A DNA stretch of 51,251 nucleotides from a virus (Duplodnaviria > Heunggongvirae > Uroviricota > Caudoviricetes): positions 1 to 51,251 of the IMG/VR virus record IMGVR_UViG_2870495154_000004. The stretch is one strand, 5' to 3'. The notes below the pieces were generated by a model. That model searched no databases. It was not told where the DNA came from and saw only the letters and a list, made by a program, of their open reading frames with translations. The translations under genes were made by a program, and so were the position numbers. Of the stretch, positions 1-9,801 are shown one piece after another. Each line of letters starts with the position of its first letter. Position 1 is the stretch's first letter.

Positions 1-249
1 TCATCTGATCTGTATCCAGCAGAGAAGGTCACTTAACAACCATCCGCAAGATTTCTTTCCGATAGACTTACGTGGTGGAAATGTTCCCTCCCGTTCAAGT
101 TTCCACGCTTGTGTACGAGAAATTGACGTGATCTCATATCGTTCCTTTTCACGTACCAGTCTGTCGCATTCAATCCCATAAGCTTTCAAAATGACCAGAC
201 GCTGTTCATCTGTTAATGGAAGCCACATACTACCCTCCTGATATATCAA
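1..249 (-). CDS. AlpA-like small DNA-binding regulator (phage/island transcriptional regulator family)
   Basis: 82-aa ORF; the C-terminal GWLLSDLLCWI segment resembles the AlpA/Xis-type HTH family; lies outside the prophage in AT-rich flank. Confidence 0.45.
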   Translation of the reverse strand: MIYQEGSMWLPLTDEQRLVILKAYGIECDRLVREKERYEITSISRTQAWKLEREGTFPPRKSIGKKSCGWLLSDLLCWIQIR

Positions 250-918
250 TACTTTTTATTTCCGGCATGAGCATGAAATGACTAAGTTTCCCGGATAAAC
301 AATGAGTGAAAGTCACTATCATTCATCCAGTCAACACCTTACAAATAAAATGTAATACTATGATTTTTATAGGTCAAAATACTGAATTGAAATGTCAAAA
401 TGGCTTTTAATGGAAAAAATAAAGACATATAGAACCAAATAAAAACAATCCGCGACCAATAAAAACAAAAATTAATATTAAAAATCCATTATGACGATTT
501 TTGTTGACTAAAATTAGGTTGGGATATATAAATAAATCCATGTAAAATTCAAACAAAGCATGGAGGAGTCGCAGGAAGGTGAAATATTTCCATCTAATTT
601 GTGATAATCATCACAAAAATAAGCTACAACAAGCGGAGGAAAAGACAATCTGTTGCTGAACAGACAGAAGCAGGCTACGAATGATCGGAAAATGAAGCAA
701 ATACGCTTATACAGAAGACGCAGAGGTAACTGACGGAGACAATCACAATCAGGAGAAAATTATCGTAAATAATGTATAAAATCTCAGGATATAAACAAAT
801 GTACACAAGCTATCCACGTAATCAGCGGCTGGCTCAGGATTAACGTTTCATTTCAGTGGACAAGATCGATTCTGTCTGACAGCGGACCAATATGTAGCAA
901 GCAGAAACTTCTGACATC

Positions 919-2550
919 ATGGTAACTCGGACAATGCAACAAAAGTATCAGTATGATCGTGTTTTATCCGGCGAACTCCACCCATTCCCTGGCATATACG
1001 AGGCGGTTTCCGAACAAATCCTTTTGCTCATTTTTAAAGCACGTCAACTATATCAGGATCCAGAATATCGCCCCTGGTTTGAAGAACAGCACAGAGTACT
1101 CTCTGCATTACGTGCCAATACAGAGCTCCTGAGAATCTTTAGAGAACAAAGAAGCGCTGAAGAACCAAAGCTTACTATTGAAGAGTCTACCTCCCCCCAA
1201 CCCACTCCTTCTGCTCTTACAGATGCGCTTAATGTGATGTGCCATTTATACAATGGTTTTGATGAAGGAAATATCAGTCTGAAAACTTGGGGGGCGATGC
1301 AAGAGGTACAGACAACATCAACCTTTATCAGCCCAGGAACGAGAACCTGGAAAACACCTGAACTGGCAAAGTTTGTAGGAGATGATTTATTTAATATTCT
1401 GACTGAATGTAAGGCCTGGAGTTCACCAATTCCAGCAGAAACCCGACAGGGGTATTGCCATCAGGATCTGTCTGTTGCGCACTCCTGCACCTCAGAGTTG
1501 CTGGCACACCTGAAGCAGTATCATGAAATAGATGAATCAACAATACTTGCCATAACAATTGGTCTGGCGGTTAACGAATTCTACCAGAATAAGCAAAATA
1601 TTCCAGAATGGCTTTCCTGTTTTGAGAATAAGAACAAATGGCCCTGGGACTGCAGGAAGTCAGATACTGAAGATGTGCACAGACTGAGAGAACGACTATC
1701 GATAATCGGATGTACAGAATTCGTAAAAAATATGTTTTCAGTCGCCAGTCAGCGTGAAATACAGACAATGTACAATATTTATGTCCATATTTATGCAGCT
1801 GAAATCTGTGGTTGGGTAAAAACAAGTATGGCGTATTTTAAACCAACAGATTTCATCCAGTACACATGGAAATTCGCAACAGTTACTCCGGATAAAGATG
1901 AAAAAACCGAGAATACGACCGCATGGGAAAGGGATTATTGTCAGATAACCATACAACGAGATGAACTCCTTAGATTGATTCGCACTAATACTCTGCAGGA
2001 TGCCGCAATTCATCTTTCAGGCTGCCTGCAATATGCATATCTGGAGTCAGTAAAGCATGATATTGACTATCCAGGAATAGCCCCTAATGCTGAAGAAAAG
2101 AAAATGAAACACACAGATTCTATTGAATTTTCTGGAATTCGGAATAACATCATAAATGCAGTAAAACGGCTAGAATCATTTGAAAAATGGTATGAAACTA
2201 ATAAAGTTTTGTTGGTAAGTAATAAAAAAATACGAACAGAGAAGATTGACGTTGTTGTACGACTTGCAGGACTGAAAGCCTATGATTTGCAGGAAGGGGT
2301 TCCGGAAGGTCTGAAATGGAAAGTTAAAGATGGCATAAATGAACGCATCAAAACCGATACCAGTTTATGCCTGCCTCAGGATATCAGTGATACATCGCTA
2401 AACCGTTATCGTCACGCTGTGACGCGCATTGTCAACAACGAAATCGACACATTACTGATGGAACAGAAGAAAAAAAATAAAAGATTCCCCTACAGCAAAG
2501 ATCGACATGCGATCCAACCTTTATGGAGCAAATGCTTGATCGAGCAGTAG
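919..2550 (+). CDS. hypothetical protein, 543 aa, no recognised domain
   Basis: long uninterrupted ORF preceded by about 670 bp of very AT-rich leader; no motif recognised by eye. Confidence 0.5.
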   Translation: MVTRTMQQKYQYDRVLSGELHPFPGIYEAVSEQILLLIFKARQLYQDPEYRPWFEEQHRVLSALRANTELLRIFREQRSAEEPKLTIEESTSPQPTPSALTDALNVMCHLYNGFDEGNISLKTWGAMQEVQTTSTFISPGTRTWKTPELAKFVGDDLFNILTECKAWSSPIPAETRQGYCHQDLSVAHSCTSELLAHLKQYHEIDESTILAITIGLAVNEFYQNKQNIPEWLSCFENKNKWPWDCRKSDTEDVHRLRERLSIIGCTEFVKNMFSVASQREIQTMYNIYVHIYAAEICGWVKTSMAYFKPTDFIQYTWKFATVTPDKDEKTENTTAWERDYCQITIQRDELLRLIRTNTLQDAAIHLSGCLQYAYLESVKHDIDYPGIAPNAEEKKMKHTDSIEFSGIRNNIINAVKRLESFEKWYETNKVLLVSNKKIRTEKIDVVVRLAGLKAYDLQEGVPEGLKWKVKDGINERIKTDTSLCLPQDISDTSLNRYRHAVTRIVNNEIDTLLMEQKKKNKRFPYSKDRHAIQPLWSKCLIEQ

Positions 2551-2642
2551 AGAACTGAGGGGATAACCGTTCTGTTATCCCCTGTTTATTCTGCCAACTC
2601 TCAGGTCTGTCAGAGTTCCAAGAACACGATGCGGCTGGCAAA

Positions 2643-3158
2643 TTATGCGGCTTTTCCATTAACAGATTCGGCCACAAGAACAACACCGTGTTTATTTCGA
2701 TCAGGATGTTCACTCCAGATTTCTGATACAGGAATACTTTCCCCGTCATAGCAGATCCGATCGCCATCAAACGGATAATACCGTGCGGAATCAGTATCTA
2801 AAATAAACACTTTCAGATTCGTTGAACGACGCGCTATATGCTACCAGAGGGCTTTACCTCCTTCATATTGCTCGTTATCACTTAATAGTATAACGCCCGC
2901 TTTTGTGGCTATCGTTTCATAAACAAACGTCGCAAGGCCAACATCACGTACAGCGCCATCGACAACAATCCCTTCAATCTGAGCAACGTCCTGTTCTTCC
3001 CAGAATTTCCGGACAAACACCCCTTCAAGCTGTGAACGACGCTGAAGCTCCAGAGTGGCAACAACCTTATGGCGAATATCACCATCAATAACAGAAGGTG
3101 CAGCTTCGATTACCGCAGCGAACGGAGTCTTTGGATCCCAGATGATCTGGTAAAGCAC
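2643..3158 (-). pseudogene. ORF interrupted by a single in-frame amber codon (105 aa + TAG + 66 aa in the same frame)
   Basis: 105-aa ORF ends at TAG (2841-2843); the same frame stays open for 66 more codons to a TAA at 2643-2645. Confidence 0.35.
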
Positions 3159-3531
3159 ACCCTGAATAGTTACTCCATCCAGTATCGAAAAAGACGAGCT
3201 ACAGTAGCAGGGGAGTAAGACATTGGAATGACAGCCATTTTATGGCCTAAAATTTGAAAACATTAGTATCAATACTGACCTCATCAGTCTGAGCATATAT
3301 TGATAAAGTTTTTATGTTTACACTCAATAAATACCTTGCCAAACAACTAATAGCGATGTCTACATTGCCATTCGACATGCTTACAATTTTTGTCAACAAG
3401 AAAGTCAATTTATATCAACGATAAGAAGTAAACACGAGGACACCAAAACCAAATGTACACACTTTTGTGCTTTGTGTCCCCTGTGTGTACCCAAATGACA
3501 AACTGCAAGAAAATCTAGGCACACACTTATC

Positions 3532-3594
3532 TAACTTATTGATTTAAATGGTGCCGATAATAGGAGTCGAACCTACGACCTTCGCATTACGAAT
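3532..3594. repeat. att core copy distal to int (63 bp; carries the 3' 46 nt of tRNA-Thr plus 17 bp)
   Basis: exact 63-bp direct repeat of 49791-49853; flanking sequence diverges on both sides. Confidence 0.85.
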
Positions 3595-4133
3595 TATAAG
3601 AATCCGCTTCTAATTCAAAGCATTACCCCATCAACACTGCGCTCACACGTCCCACCACATCAAAACATGTAAAGCCTTGCAAGCCATTGCGAGGCCTTAT
3701 ATGTCTCAGTTTTGTCCCACCTTGTATTACGACTTGCATAGCCAATGAAGATAAACGTAACGACAAACGGCACTGCAGTCTTCTTTTCTTTCACGACTTC
3801 CCCACACCCAGCATGCATACCTTTCTGCCACAACTGTAGTGAATGTCTGTTATGAGCGAAATATAGTCATTGACTACCGAATCTCTTTTCGCCGAAACGC
3901 GCTACTAAATAGCTAGCGCGTGCGCAATGGCACGTTAGTGCTGATATACGTCAGGAGTAAAGCGTGATGTAAATTTTTCTGATGAATTTTCAGAATGTAT
4001 CATCCGGGCTTACCGATGGCAGTGTCGTTTCGGCTCAAAAAGGTGTGAAATATAAATAGCAGCGCTGATGTTTAAATAATTATCAAGTCTGGCATGATGA
4101 GAGAGAAACTTAACTTATGCGAGGATCGCAAGT

Positions 4134-5504
4134 ATGCTGAATCTTATCGTTGTCGGAACCCCCAAATACTACACTTTTTTTTCTGAACCCAGTGGCAATG
4201 ACTCTTTCCCTGTGTCGCGACTCTTCGAATCCACGCCAGAGTCTCTTAGAAGCAGATTGCTTCCCCTGACTGAAAAAACCTATCATTTTCTTCAGGAACT
4301 GCCCGTTGTATTTATGTCCGAGCCGGAAATTGAATTCGATGAAGATAATGAAAAAATAGGTTATTTCAGCCACATCCGCTTAGGAAAAATCAGCAAGATA
4401 AGTACGTCCGTGTATAACAGAGAAAAAGTTTTAGCGTTTGATTATGAGATTACCAGTGATATCGGCTACAAGCCCTTAACCAGCGATAAAGAGTACGTAA
4501 GTGAGCTGGAGCTGGGCAGTTTCGGACTAAACAGAACGTTCTGGGCGGTCAAAGAGATTTCCGTAAATGAGATTCTGCGTGTTTTAGGCCTTGAAGGCTA
4601 TTCTAATGTTGAGCCCGCAGCAGCGAGTGCGGAAGCACCGGAGAATAATGAAGAACTAGAGATCATTGCGAATATCAATCAGTACTTGCAGGTGATACTC
4701 GATCATACACAGGGAAACGATGAAGAGGTATTTTACCGCGGTCACTCGGACATCAACTACCAACTGGAACCCTCACTGTTCCGCAAGGATACTCAGGGTA
4801 ACTATCGCTACCGCCATCACGAATCGGACATGATAACAGAGCTGCTGACCGTGCAGCCCGCCGAGTTCAAAGACGATCGGTATATGCTAGATAAACTCGT
4901 GCGCATGCAACACTATGGCCTACCCACACGCCTGCTTGATGTATCAACAAACCCCTTGATCGCACTATATTTTGCCTGCTCTAAAATCAAGCACGATGAA
5001 AATAATCATGAAATTGACGGGAACGTCATTATTCTGACGACGCCCAAAAGTGAAATTAAGTTTTTCGACTCGGATACCGTAAGTTGCATAGCCAATCTTT
5101 CCCGTCTTCCCTCTCGTTTCAAAAGCAGCCTGAAAACTAATCTCACCATTCCGGCGTTTAACGAATCTGAAGAGTGCGGACAACTACTACACCTGATCCG
5201 CGATGAAAAGTCCTATTTCAAAAGCATCATCGATCCGGTCCACCTAAGTAAAATTGTTGTGGTCAAAGGTCGGCTCAGTAACGCACGTATTTCGTCCCAA
5301 TCAGGCGCTTTCCTGCTCTTTGGTGAAAACGTAGACCTACCGGAAACGGGACTCAGTACGCTGAACATCAAAAAGCTTGTTATTAGAAACAAAGAGCATC
5401 TGATGCAGCAACTGAGCCGCCTTGGCATTAACGAAAGCACGGTGTACCCCGGCATTGAGAAGGCTGCTACGGAAATTGCAAAACTATACGATGGACGAAT
5501 CTGA
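4134..5504 (+). CDS. FRG-domain protein with an uncharacterised N-terminal domain
   Basis: 456-aa ORF; C-terminal half carries the FRG signature (VFYRGHSD...YQLEPSLFR...QHYGLPTRLLDVSTNPLIALYFAC); SD-like GAGGA upstream. Confidence 0.6.
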   Translation: MLNLIVVGTPKYYTFFSEPSGNDSFPVSRLFESTPESLRSRLLPLTEKTYHFLQELPVVFMSEPEIEFDEDNEKIGYFSHIRLGKISKISTSVYNREKVLAFDYEITSDIGYKPLTSDKEYVSELELGSFGLNRTFWAVKEISVNEILRVLGLEGYSNVEPAAASAEAPENNEELEIIANINQYLQVILDHTQGNDEEVFYRGHSDINYQLEPSLFRKDTQGNYRYRHHESDMITELLTVQPAEFKDDRYMLDKLVRMQHYGLPTRLLDVSTNPLIALYFACSKIKHDENNHEIDGNVIILTTPKSEIKFFDSDTVSCIANLSRLPSRFKSSLKTNLTIPAFNESEECGQLLHLIRDEKSYFKSIIDPVHLSKIVVVKGRLSNARISSQSGAFLLFGENVDLPETGLSTLNIKKLVIRNKEHLMQQLSRLGINESTVYPGIEKAATEIAKLYDGRI

Positions 5505-5645
5505 TAGCGCTTTAGTCGCACGGCACGCCTGTGTGCCAGCGTGGGCCCATAGCCGCTTTAATCGCCGTGCAGAATGCAGTTTTCAGGTAACTTCAGAGAA
5601 ACAAGTGATCTCATTTCGTTGTATTTATTAGCTGCGGAGTCATTA

Positions 5646-6698
5646 ATGGAAAGAATCAAGAGGAATCCCGAACGATTTGAAGCCTTTGAGCTTTTTTCCT
5701 CGTTGGGCCAGATCTATAATTACGATATTAAAAACCCCGAGCACCAGGATGACTTTATACAAAAGGTCACCACGTCATTAATCGCTTCCCATCAGAATCC
5801 AATTCTGCTGAACGGGAAAAGAATAGAAAACCTATTTAAACACGTTTGCGCCGCACTGAACCACTGCCAGTTTCTTAAACAGGAAGACGCCGGAGACTTG
5901 ATGTCAGCCGATCCCGATCTGGTGGCACCTGACTATCGCATTATACTGAAGGATCGCCGTCAGATCTTTGTGGAAGTAAAAAACTTTAACGCGGATGACG
6001 TGGCTGACGATTATCGCCTGAAGAAATCGTACAGTGATAAGGTTGAAAAGTACGGTGAGCTCCATGGTATTCCAGTTTATTATGCCATCTACATCAGGAT
6101 GCTGCGCCGGTGGGCGCTGGTTGCACGCTCCTCAATGAAGGAGCTAGAGCGTGAACATACCTTGACGCAGGCCTCGGCGCTCGCAAAAAGTGAGATGTAC
6201 CTGCTGGGCGACCTATCGATAGCAACAGAACCCGATCTGGTTTTTGAGCTTATCCCCGACCGGACCAAAGAAGTTTCAGTTAGTCCCGAAGGCATCGCCC
6301 ATTTTACAATTGGCGAGATTAAAATTTACTGCAATGACAGACAAGTAACGGATAAATTTGAAATGAACACGGCGTTTCATCTGATGCGCTACGGAGAGTG
6401 GCTCTGCCCCGGATCGGAGGCAATATTCACTGATGGTCAGCTTGAGAGCATCCGATACACATTTTCCCCGGAAGACGACGAAAATTACAAAAGACAGGGT
6501 TTCGACTTTATAGGTACGCTGAGTTCGCTGGTCACGTCGGCCTTTAACGAGCAGACTGTACACGACAGCCAGATCAGGTCAGTTGACACCCGGCAGAATG
6601 TCAGACTTTTCACGGTAACCATCCCTGATGATTACAAAGGGGGAGGCCTGCCTCTGTGGCGTTTCTCAATGCGGCCAAACTATGAATTTACCGATTAA
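5646..6698 (+). CDS. PD-(D/E)xK nuclease-fold protein (restriction-endonuclease-like) with an unknown C-terminal domain
   Basis: ORF with GGAG 6 nt upstream of ATG 5646 (track ORF opens at 5574); motif order E...PD...(14 aa)...EVK in APDYRIILKDRRQIFVEVK. Confidence 0.5.
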   Translation: MERIKRNPERFEAFELFSSLGQIYNYDIKNPEHQDDFIQKVTTSLIASHQNPILLNGKRIENLFKHVCAALNHCQFLKQEDAGDLMSADPDLVAPDYRIILKDRRQIFVEVKNFNADDVADDYRLKKSYSDKVEKYGELHGIPVYYAIYIRMLRRWALVARSSMKELEREHTLTQASALAKSEMYLLGDLSIATEPDLVFELIPDRTKEVSVSPEGIAHFTIGEIKIYCNDRQVTDKFEMNTAFHLMRYGEWLCPGSEAIFTDGQLESIRYTFSPEDDENYKRQGFDFIGTLSSLVTSAFNEQTVHDSQIRSVDTRQNVRLFTVTIPDDYKGGGLPLWRFSMRPNYEFTD

Positions 6699-7174
6699 GA
6701 GTAATAGTGAGACATTTAATCGGGATAAATCGCTCGATAATTCGTTGCTACTTCAACAACTTATAAATGAGAAGACCCAGCCTAATAACCTCACAATCAA
6801 CTTCATTGCGGATCCCCAAAGATAGACGGGCATAGGCGGCTTTTTATCACCTAAGCGTCAGCGCAACATAAATGATCGGGTCAATGGAATGACCTGTTCC
6901 CCGTTAAACAACACAGATGGTTGTTAGCCACTTCCGCACTTGGCATGACTTGTCCCACCGTTTGATACGTTACTATCTTAGTAATGTCCGCTTCTGGCAC
7001 GAAGCTATCGTAGGTTAGGCCCAAGGACAGCTTTAAGCGAGGAGCGGACGCTGAATTCGAATTCATCGTAAAAATTTTTATGGCCAAGTAGCTCTATAAG
7101 GCCTTTCATTAAAGCTATCTTTGTCGCAAAGCTTATGCAAAAAGTTACTTTATCTTTAAATCTAATAAGATAAC

Positions 7175-7990
7175 ATGATTGACGAAACCCCAAAATCAAC
7201 TTTACTTAAGCAAAAACGAGGCATGCAATTGAAAAAGATTAGGAAAATCAATAAAAAAATTATTGATGAATTGCTATCTCTTCGCGAATCAAGAGGAGCT
7301 ATAGAAGACTTCTCAATGTCTTTCCTACTAAATTTTGCAGAAAATTGTCGACTTATGCATTCACTTATTTCAACGAAAGATAAGAAAATAGATATTTATA
7401 AAACAGCATATCGACAATATTTTGTATTTCTAATCAGTTGCTGGGAAACATATTTTAGAGACGTTTTTGTTTTCGTGCATTCAGTTGATGAATCTAGAAT
7501 TACAACACTACTATCTAAAATGAGAACAGAAACATCTATCAATATAAACACTGAGATAAATCTATCAGAGTTATTGAGTAAAAGCTTTAACTTTCAAAAC
7601 TTAAACGACCTTGAAGAAGCATATAATGGCATGTGGGGTGAGAGTTTTTTAAACTACATATGTACAACTAATATATCTCCTTGCGGTCTGAGTGGCCAAA
7701 TTTCCCAAAGCTTATCGATAGAAAATATATTTCCAGACTGGAGAGCCCTCATAGAGGAAGCATTTTACATTAGGCACAAAGTGGTTCATGATGCAAACTT
7801 CAGACCTAAAGTCAACATTGAATTAATCAGTAAGGTAGAGGCTTTGTTTTTAATAATCCCACAATTTGCAACGCATATCATATCAGAAAGATTCAACTTA
7901 AAAAAAATCGTCATTTCAGATGGTAAAAATAACCATACCTATATTTTCAATATCAGTGATATATTATCTGATGATTGGGTTGTTAGTTGA
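7175..7990 (+). CDS. AT-rich hypothetical protein with HEPN-like Rx4H motif (candidate RNase / abortive-infection protein)
   Basis: 271-aa ORF in markedly AT-rich DNA; C-terminal motif YIRHKVVHD fits the HEPN Rx4-6H signature. Confidence 0.4.
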   Translation: MIDETPKSTLLKQKRGMQLKKIRKINKKIIDELLSLRESRGAIEDFSMSFLLNFAENCRLMHSLISTKDKKIDIYKTAYRQYFVFLISCWETYFRDVFVFVHSVDESRITTLLSKMRTETSININTEINLSELLSKSFNFQNLNDLEEAYNGMWGESFLNYICTTNISPCGLSGQISQSLSIENIFPDWRALIEEAFYIRHKVVHDANFRPKVNIELISKVEALFLIIPQFATHIISERFNLKKIVISDGKNNHTYIFNISDILSDDWVVS

Positions 7991-8229
7991 TGATGGGATT
8001 GTAAGTATATTAACACAAAAAACAAAGAATCTAATGAAGTCCGCTTCTGGCACATAGCAGCCATAGAGACAGTGGCGTAAAGTCATGGAGGATCGGTGGG
8101 AGGAGGTGCAAATCCTCTCATGCAAAAATATGTAAAATCGGTAGCAACTGGAAATCATTCAATACTCGCACTATCGGAAGTTCACCAGCCAACCGCAGCA
8201 CGTTCCTACATACGACGTGTCTGCGGTTT

Positions 8230-8584
8230 TCTTTTTCGCTTAGATTGTGTCTGGTTCTTTCGGCCACTCAATATCAGGTGCAGTTGATGTATCAACACGG
8301 TTCAGCAACACCCGATACTTTTTCCAGGCTTCCACCACCAGCACGACAAGATGCCGCATACAGTGACCCAGTCAGTCCAGTTTCCAGACAACCAGTGCGT
8401 CACCTTTTTGAAGGCGCTTTAAAGCGCGTTTTAATCCTGGTCGGTCTGTCTTTGTCCCGCTTAATTTATCTTCAAATATTTGTTCACATCCTGCACAAAC
8501 AAGAGCGTTTCGTTGCAGGTCTGTATTCTGGTCATTTGTTGATACCCTTACATAGCCAATCAGCACACTGAATCTCCCGTCCAA
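8230..8584 (-). pseudogene. pin: Pin/Gin-family serine DNA invertase remnant (frameshifted and truncated)
   Basis: first 70 aa ([23 protein letters not shown]...LVVWKLD) match Pin-type invertase N-terminus; premature TGA; invertase-like residues continue in another frame; C-terminal HTH missing. Confidence 0.65.
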
Positions 8585-8620
8585 AAGCGCAAATCATGCC
8601 ATGCAGGCCAGAAACGGCCA

Positions 8621-8648
8621 TTATCTAAAACCTCGGTTTACAGGAAAC
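8621..8648. other. gix/pix-like invertase crossover site (orphan)
   Basis: TTATCTAAAACCTCGGTTTACAGGAAAC resembles Gin/Pin recombination sites; lies about 55 bp upstream of the pin remnant. Confidence 0.5.
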
Positions 8649-8973
8649 GGTAAATCAGGCTTCTGGCGCATTACAGAAAAAACAGAACGGCGCAGATATT
8701 CCAGGAAAAGATACCTTCACCAAAAATATTGGTGCCTGCCGCGCATATAGCGCATGGCTGAATATTGGTGGCGATAGTCAGACCTGGACAACTGCACAAT
8801 TCATTTCGTGGCTGGAGAGTCAGGGGGCATTTAACCATCCTTATCATCCTTCCTCAAGTCGTTAATCGCGTGCGTAGCCAAACTCAATACATCAACATGT
8901 CGAAGCATGATCTGCCCTCCCATATACTGTTTTTATATACAGCGGTTGCACTTTAAAGGCAGATCAATAGCTG

Positions 8974-9801
8974 CTACGGAAAGGTAGACGGATTTGTTGG
9001 GATCGTGTCGCCATAGTACTTCCCGCCTGAACTGAATCGCCTGTTAAAGATATCCTGTTCAGACGCCGTGGCCTCTGCCATGGTCATACCTGCTGCAGTG
9101 AGATCGATAAAATGCCATCTGTAAAGGACGTATGAACGACACAAATTGTTCAGTAGCGTACCGAAACCGCTAGGTGACCCCCAAACCATATGGTCGTAGT
9201 AGGCAGTTGCGACAGCCATATCTGTGCCTGTTTTTGCTGACGCTTGAGATTTCAGGGCTGGATTACCCGTCAACCCTCCATCCAGACTGGCAATCAGCAA
9301 CTTATTATTAGATGGAGCTGAGTTATGCGACATCAACACTTCTACAGGGTTCTGGCTCGTCGATGACGGCTTATCTCGAGTAATACGATGATGCACAAAC
9401 ACTGCGAACTGATGATCATTCTGATGTGCAACAACGTACGGCAGGATGCCAGGGCAGCGGAACCGGGCCAGGTGGCCAGATACCTGATTGACCTGAGAGA
9501 CTATGCCATGAATACCAAGCTTTGGTGTTCTCTCAAACTTAACTTCAGTGCTACCAAGTGTGTTTGAATACTTAAAGGCCAAATCAGCCTGCGATACGCC
9601 AGTTAAAGTGGCGGCTGGAATCGCGGCTAAATTTGGCGTTGTCGATATATCAGTACCTGTCGCTGATAAATTAAAATTTTCATCTACTTCATAAGCATCC
9701 AGCAGCCCAAGAGACCCATCAGTTAACCCAGGGTACGGATAAAAAATAGGCATTCTTGAATCTGTAAAATTAGCTCCATATAAAGGATTGGCGCGGCCCA
9801 T
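8974..9801 (-). CDS. hypothetical protein downstream of the tail fibre gene (possible tail-fibre-associated protein; not Tfa-like)
   Basis: 275-aa ORF immediately following stf on the same strand; no motif recognised. Confidence 0.4.
   Translation of the reverse strand: MGRANPLYGANFTDSRMPIFYPYPGLTDGSLGLLDAYEVDENFNLSATGTDISTTPNLAAIPAATLTGVSQADLAFKYSNTLGSTEVKFERTPKLGIHGIVSQVNQVSGHLARFRCPGILPYVVAHQNDHQFAVFVHHRITRDKPSSTSQNPVEVLMSHNSAPSNNKLLIASLDGGLTGNPALKSQASAKTGTDMAVATAYYDHMVWGSPSGFGTLLNNLCRSYVLYRWHFIDLTAAGMTMAEATASEQDIFNRRFSSGGKYYGDTIPTNPSTFP

Follow-up and report, generated by a model that had tools for sequence, protein, structure and literature searches.

When its R-x4-6-H motif is intact, a HEPN domain is typically an endoribonuclease that works without metal, with an active site formed by two motifs that meet across a dimer (Anantharaman et al. 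2013, PMC3710099). Within this superfamily, the Ribo L-PSP-HEPN family was predicted to attack mRNA and was placed as a distant relative of AbiD/AbiF (PMC3710099). HEPN proteins that act alone against phages have been described in detail elsewhere. HepS, a solo HEPN abortive-infection protein of the Salmonella prophage Gifsy-1, rests as a latent tetramer that is opened by the siphovirus tail-tip protein J, and the activated enzyme cuts tRNA anticodon loops (PMC13043305). DARNA, also known as PD-T7-3, is a HEPN anticodon nuclease activated by SSB-bound single-stranded DNA (bioRxiv 10.64898/2026.02.22.705581). One review gives PF18735, the Pfam family HEPN_RiboL-PSP, as the 'HEPN' label for PD-T4-2, PD-T4-5, PD-T7-3 and ApeA. 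We found no experimentally characterized member of PF18735 in the searched literature, and no functional study in the literature on PF18735, the temperate phage PhiR11_1 or the protein accession considered here.

The window, that is, the whole 51,251-nucleotide stretch of Caudoviricetes DNA analysed in this study (IMG/VR record IMGVR_UViG_2870495154_000004), carries an AT-rich gene that an initial annotation, made from the sequence alone, had proposed as a candidate abortive-infection RNase. Our analysis leaves very little doubt that its product has a HEPN fold and belongs to this family, and suggests that it is one of a rare group of stand-alone HEPN proteins carried by unrelated temperate phages.

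The gene and its predicted fold

Over positions 6900-8100, the sequence of E. coli CREC-532 is identical to the window. The features of the gene and its product are as follows, with residues numbered on the 271-aa ORF.

7175..7990 (+): maximal ORF with an ATG start, 271 aa; RefSeq WP_023150044.1, hypothetical protein
7218..7221 (+): GAGG, a Shine-Dalgarno-like element 7 nt 5' of the TTG at 7229
7229..7990 (+): probable true CDS with a TTG start, 253 aa, after the start in the PhiR11_1 record and the homologue N-termini (MKKIRK...)
7346..7837 (+): HEPN domain, residues 58-221, aligned to profile positions 7-174 of 191 of Pfam PF18735
7772..7789 (+): predicted catalytic motif R200-H201-K-V-V-H205, followed by the invariant D206, N208 and R210
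7892..7987 (+): C-terminal module of ~30 residues (~240-271), a beta-hairpin and a short helix, with W268 invariant
7969..8006 (+): 19-nt tandem duplication across the stop codon; the last codons read DDWVVS and stop, followed by the degenerate repeat DDGIVS

The low GC content that drew attention to this gene is borne out by comparison with the rest of the window. The intact ORF has a GC content of 0.316, whereas the window averages 0.505 (sd 0.067 in 816-bp windows); just 3 of 1009 such windows reach so low a value, and all three overlap the gene. The upstream region is AT-rich as well, as had been claimed, for the AT-rich block runs from ~7089 to ~8040 and takes in the proximal upstream DNA. 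The neighbouring FRG and 374-aa genes have a GC content of 0.45-0.47.

The sequence YIRHKVVHD, in which the HEPN R-x4-6-H signature had been noticed, is present at residues 198-206, with R200 and H205 in the predicted catalytic positions. As a bare pattern, Rx4H is within chance, occurring in 25% of shuffles of the 271-aa protein (Rx4-6H in 58%, and the stricter R[NHD]x3H in 3.8%), and the weight of the R200-x4-H205 motif therefore comes from its conservation and from the fold. Across 25 aligned sequences, reaching down to 37% identity, R200, H201, H205, D206, N208 and R210 are invariant, as are R80-Q81-Y82, E91-T92, R95-D96 and N139-F140-Q141. We searched 1.84 billion cluster representatives exhaustively with HMMER. 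At E<=1e-3 the family comprises 455 clusters, of which 168 remain at E<=1e-10 and 71 at E<=1e-30; almost all are stand-alone proteins of 220-290 aa. Among the matches listed, Rx4H is found in all 106 representatives of at least 220 aa, and R-H/N-x3-H-[D/N/E] stands at the homologous position in about 105 of these 106, with one clear exception (P0123). A motif that varied among homologues had been named as evidence against the abortive-infection reading; the R and H are instead near-universal, in the 25 aligned sequences as in the wider set.

The window protein matches PF18735 with an E value of 1.1e-5 and 25.9 bits, which is 2.5 bits below the curated gathering threshold of 28.4. The profile is matched by 21 of the 25 aligned homologues, several of them above the cut-off at 34-40 bits, which is the range scored by homologues 50-58% identical to the window protein. 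A precomputed PF18735.7 match is attached to cluster P0001, which is 99% identical, and most database relatives likewise carry a precomputed PF18735 match. By this transitive evidence through its homologues, the window protein is a member of PF18735. The AlphaFold2 (AF2) model, built as a monomer only on the 25-sequence alignment, is confident (pLDDT 83.5, pTM 0.82) and contains the four-helix HEPN core that a structure prediction was expected to reveal: an all-alpha core of helices at ~43-65, 72-104, 189-205 and 215-240, with the R-x4-H at the end of the third core helix and ahead of helix 215-240, as expected of HEPN domains. A subdomain of ~80 residues (106-185) is inserted between the second and third core helices, and the beta-hairpin and short helix lie at the C-terminus.

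Given the PF18735 match and the helix layout of the model, the HEPN domain covers most of the protein. Contrary to the initial annotation, the N-terminal two thirds are recognizable, as the profile already covers residues 58-221. Other searches returned little: Foldseek found nothing significant for the model in PDB or BFVD, the profile matches among PDB sequences were all spurious (e.g. T4 beta-glucosyltransferase, E 0.03), NCBIfam, PADLOC and PHROGs hold no family for the product, and the longer family members (294-354 aa) have no recognizable additional domain. Judging from the conserved residues and the predicted fold, the protein is probably a catalytically competent RNase.

The start of the gene most likely lies at the TTG at 7229, giving a predicted product of 253 aa. 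Homologues are mostly 250-260 aa long and their N-termini match residue 17-19 of the long ORF; the GenBank record of PhiR11_1 starts the gene at the equivalent TTG; and at the closest foreign locus (L032, 79% protein identity) an ATG just 5' of the TTG is followed directly by TAA. The spacing of the GAGG element points to the same start. DNA similarity between L032 and the window begins only ~45 nt 5' of the TTG, and residues 1-18 of the long ORF are the sole part of the AF2 model with pLDDT below 50. Rare start codons are common in the group, with TTG or GTG in 8 of 12 close homologues (position 7229 of the window and position 8001 of L003, L004, L005, L006, L008, L032 and L033), and the homologous genes keep a GC content of 0.28-0.37 despite host flanks of 0.35-0.57. 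The start codons, together with a base composition independent of the host, suggest a horizontally moving gene whose expression is held low. A simple scan recognized no promoter or terminator around the gene.

Cassette edges, neighbours and carriers

The AT-rich cassette is bracketed by two copies of a direct repeat, 81% identical to each other.

6979..7005 (no strand assigned): left copy of the 27-nt direct repeat, with the 15-nt exact core GTCCGCTTCTGGCAC
8032..8058 (no strand assigned): right copy of the 27-nt direct repeat, at the right edge of the cargo

We place the right edge of the cargo at the right copy because common prophage sequence resumes at ~8040: from there rightwards, on the tail-fibre-assembly/pin side, the window is similar to thousands of E. 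coli prophages and to the lambdoid phages HK629, HK630 and mEp460. The repeat may be the footprint of the cassette's recombination into the prophage, and together with the step in GC it suggests that the HEPN gene came in independently of the FRG and 374-aa genes beside it. A third, partial copy of the repeat occurs at 8659-8676. The tail-fibre-assembly/pin remnant also gave two sub-threshold Rfam matches on the minus strand, IS009 at 8283-8362 (47.5 bits against a gathering score of 117) and CssrB at 8194-8268 (25.5 bits against 76), which probably reflect a conserved prophage remnant and not functional RNAs.

The gene had been described as lying in one accessory stretch with an FRG/nuclease pair and the pin remnant. 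The FRG gene and the pin remnant are indeed there, but the 'nuclease' is not recognizable as such: the 374-aa ORF at 5574-6698 (+), to which RefSeq gives 350 aa, matches nothing in Pfam, NCBIfam, PADLOC or PHROG. The FRG-domain protein at 4134-5504 (+) matches PDC-S15 (E 8e-99), a candidate single-gene defence system in PADLOC, as well as phrog_4962, which brings the independent defence candidates of this stretch to at least two. The 543-aa ORF that lies to the left of the FRG gene (919-2550, +) has no match in Pfam or PADLOC, and in CREC-532 YfjI/DUF3987 and HTH genes are found further left of this ORF.

The distribution of the HEPN gene is rare and extremely patchy. Of 5,426 complete E. coli genomes, 27 carry it, with an identity never below 99%, and in all 27 the FRG, 374-aa and HEPN genes form one block, the 374-aa ORF travelling with the other two throughout. 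The same block is present in the temperate phage PhiR11_1 and a variant of it (PV340547, PV340548; host fields MG1655 and ECOR13), where it lies beyond the side tail-fibre genes, near the genome end. PhiR11_1 is inducible and forms plaques on MG1655. Beyond E. coli, a pattern-based scan found relatives of the gene in 17 of 185,579 species-representative genomes, spanning Gammaproteobacteria, Desulfobacterota, Bacteroidota, Myxococcota, Acidobacteriota and Bacillota, and a scan of the same kind found them in 3 of 2.9 million viral contigs.

Several of these relatives sit in prophages of other types. In two P2-like prophages (L033 and L003), the gene lies on the opposite strand between gpV (baseplate spike) and gpS (tail completion), a site that we take to be the variable 'orf30' position of P2; in L033 it is the only cargo between the two genes, and in L003 it adjoins a nucleoside deoxyribosyltransferase-like gene. 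In Cronobacter malonaticus (L008), the homologue is found beside a gpV remnant (7123-7835), with putA on one flank and what looks like the rut operon on the other; this is apparently the relic of a P2-like prophage that its cargo gene has outlived. An L-PSP gene 3.6 kb away at this locus looks like rutC, going by the gene order of the cluster. In an arbitrium-type prophage, aimR and the integrase gene flank a distant relative, and a further prophage relative stands behind an S24 repressor, with KAP-NTPase and SNase genes after it. Elsewhere the gene is found in defence islands alongside TIR/Thoeris, MmeI, OLD-TOPRIM ATPase, NACHT, AbiGi-like and SduA-like genes, and at one locus it has been inserted singly, with a thiamine-biosynthesis gene on one side and a class I aminoacyl-tRNA synthetase gene on the other. 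The combined prophage and defence-island location is suggestive of an anti-phage role.

Candidate function and rival explanations

We lean towards reading the gene as a stand-alone RiboL-PSP-HEPN RNase, an accessory prophage gene that would exclude rival phages, and consider an anti-phage defence role as such to be somewhat better than an even prospect. The abortive-infection RNase of the initial annotation is thus upheld as a candidate by the fold, the conservation of the motif, the lack of a partner and the mobile and defence-related contexts. In the mechanism that we propose, a lambdoid temperate phage carries the independently acquired AT-rich HEPN gene beside its tail-fibre genes, and the lysogen would make the protein at a low level from the rare TTG start. 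The protein would be latent, so that no antitoxin would be needed, until a cue from an infecting phage switches on a composite R-x4-H site across a HEPN dimer. The activated enzyme would then cut tRNA or mRNA and stop translation, aborting the infection and excluding rivals of the prophage. The RNase activity, latency, trigger and anti-phage role in this scheme are steps that we infer. A latent enzyme woken by a phage cue is the most economical model given that no antitoxin-like partner was found and that the gene can sit alone in a chromosome.

If the gene were instead the toxin of a cryptic toxin-antitoxin or addiction module that stabilizes the prophage, one would look for its antitoxin in a small RNA, similar to the type III-like arrangement of AbiF, or in a tiny ORF. 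Such a module would fit with the distant relationship to AbiD/AbiF stated for the family (PMC3710099), with the neutralization of C. difficile AbiF by an upstream RNA, with rare start codons implying that expression must stay low, and with a tightly abutting or overlapping neighbour ORF in several distant relatives. However, the neighbourhood search for an antitoxin, called for when the gene was first described as a single gene, found no conserved partner in ~27-29 loci. No family was seen more than once in a Pfam scan of 38 flanking ORFs from 15 further loci, and when 802 flanking ORFs from 27 non-redundant loci were compared all against all by BLAST, no family recurred in three or more loci, except P2 gpV, which is a marker of the insertion site only. 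An Rfam scan of 6500-8700 (E<=1) and of eight homologous loci found neither abiF nor any other family, no tandem repeat array lies upstream of the gene, and upstream and downstream DNA is not conserved among the homologous loci beyond the ~45 nt shared with L032. An adjacent MNT nucleotidyltransferase gene is absent from the window and from every homologous locus, so that nothing points to a HEPN-MNT system. At two loci the gene stands alone among housekeeping genes. With no recurring neighbour, RNA motif, conserved flank or MNT gene, the HEPN gene behaves as a self-contained unit, and we consider an addiction module unlikely. The two housekeeping loci could equally be cited for an RNA-processing or regulatory RNase that serves the prophage or the host, or for a non-catalytic HEPN protein, with no phage exclusion in either case; HEPN domains are known in RNA processing outside defence and in inactive forms (PMC3710099), and PADLOC holds no known defence model that matches the protein. 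Against such a role stand the near-universal catalytic residues, the rarity and patchiness of the family (17/185,579; 27/5,426; 3 of 2.9 million), its persistently foreign composition and its placement in variable accessory slots of unrelated temperate phages, which is typical of conflict genes, and we therefore hold it to be improbable.

The C-terminal module raises another alternative, namely a signal-gated effector that senses a TIR-made nucleotide messenger through a Tad2-like element, with the prophage copy using signals from elsewhere in the cell. The module, with the pattern P-Y-I-F-x3-D-I-L-x2-D-W, occurs in 105 of 168 full-length family members; the branch of shorter and more distant proteins lacks it. 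Weak matches to the Pfam Tad2-like profile (PF11195) come from 12 of 25 homologues, always between the last ~30 residues and the C-terminal third of the profile; the best (E 1.2e-4, 23 bits) and all others fall short of the curated 25 bits, and none comes from the window protein itself. In Tad2 (Thoeris anti-defence 2), the pocket that binds gcADPR is built in part by strand beta4, the beta4-alpha3 loop and helix alpha3, and we infer that these elements correspond to the matched stretch of PF11195. At 4 of ~29 loci, TIR-domain genes lie no more than two genes away from the homologue, in the same orientation and separated by short gaps:

TIR genes near a HEPN homologue: L005 7012-9433; L006 8855-10296; L012 2434-6171; L023 7496-8350

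These neighbours are ThsB-like, with ThsA_Macro also present in L006, and in L012 the homologue ends a TIR/Nmad2/LD_cluster2/MazG_C/UDG-like cluster. The proximity may be a sign of signal sensing, or it may be a defence-island coincidence, as TIR genes are common in such islands anyway. Thirty residues are too few for a whole Tad2 fold, the Thoeris system of L006 already has its own ThsA effector, and most loci lack a TIR gene; positions 1-9800 of the window contain none, so that no Thoeris-type TIR (ThsB) is co-encoded near the window gene. A signal-gated effector thus appears very unlikely, and we give just as little credence to its ligand-gated form, in which the Tad2-like hairpin, possibly together with a beta-hairpin of the inserted subdomain, would bind the TIR-derived signal. 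If true, a single prophage gene would plug into Thoeris-like signalling made elsewhere, representing a new effector class for TIR immunity and a use of the Tad2 sponge motif by the defence side.

Comparison with known HEPN systems

The closest match in sequence is to the PF18735 HEPN_RiboL-PSP family, with which the protein shares a profile match over nearly the whole domain, the R-x4-H and the predicted fold. However, the fusion to an endoRNase L-PSP domain and the ParB operon, contexts from which PF18735 takes its name but which are not required, are lacking in the family members we examined, and the subfamily has the additional C-terminal module of ~30 residues. Among the systems that share the 'HEPN' label, PD-T4-2, PD-T4-5, PD-T7-3 and ApeA have PADLOC models to which the protein has no detectable relation: the window protein had no match in PADLOC-DB v2.0.0 (2023) at E<=10, and the 25 homologues had scattered weak single matches, none of them to PD-T4-2, PD-T4-5, PD-T7-3, ApeA or Abi.

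With AbiD/AbiF (Abi_2) and PD-T4-5, the protein has in common that it is a single-protein HEPN carried on mobile elements. None of 25 members has an Abi_2 Pfam match at E<=1, and the abiF RNA motif found upstream of AbiD/AbiF is absent at the HEPN gene. Lactococcal AbiD/AbiF proteins are roughly 350 aa long, against ~250 aa for the present product. HepT-MntA differs in having an adjacent MNT gene, and the HEPN protein is about twice the size of HepT. DARNA is also of a different build, being a 456-aa protein that joins an N-terminal HEPN domain to a large Pds5-like sensor domain and assembles as a dodecamer (bioRxiv 10.64898/2026.02.22.705581).

HepS offers the nearest parallel. Both proteins are single and partnerless, occupy an accessory slot of a lambdoid prophage and have a canonical R-x4-H. 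A search of PDB chains with the A1 profile at E<=10 gave just six spurious matches, none of them to HepS (PDB 9OIJ), whose presence in the searched copy is unconfirmed. The Gifsy-1 record NC_010392 contains no ORF with the R100/H105 of HepS, and STM14_3211 is apparently absent from, or different in, this LT2 phage record. On present evidence, the protein would be most similar to HepS in its working, yet stand outside the HepS family.

HepS and DARNA are cases in which one polypeptide both senses the phage and shuts down translation. The gene described here may follow the same lifestyle in a different, rare and uncharacterized HEPN family, one carried by lambdoid, P2-like and arbitrium-type temperate phages and absent from the 2023 defence catalogue of PADLOC-DB v2.0.0. 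As it sits on PhiR11_1, an inducible coliphage that grows on E. coli K-12, the gene is directly testable. Its trigger and RNA target, once found, would add a new sensor-effector pair to prophage superinfection exclusion, alongside those of HepS and DARNA, and would provide a first function for PF18735.
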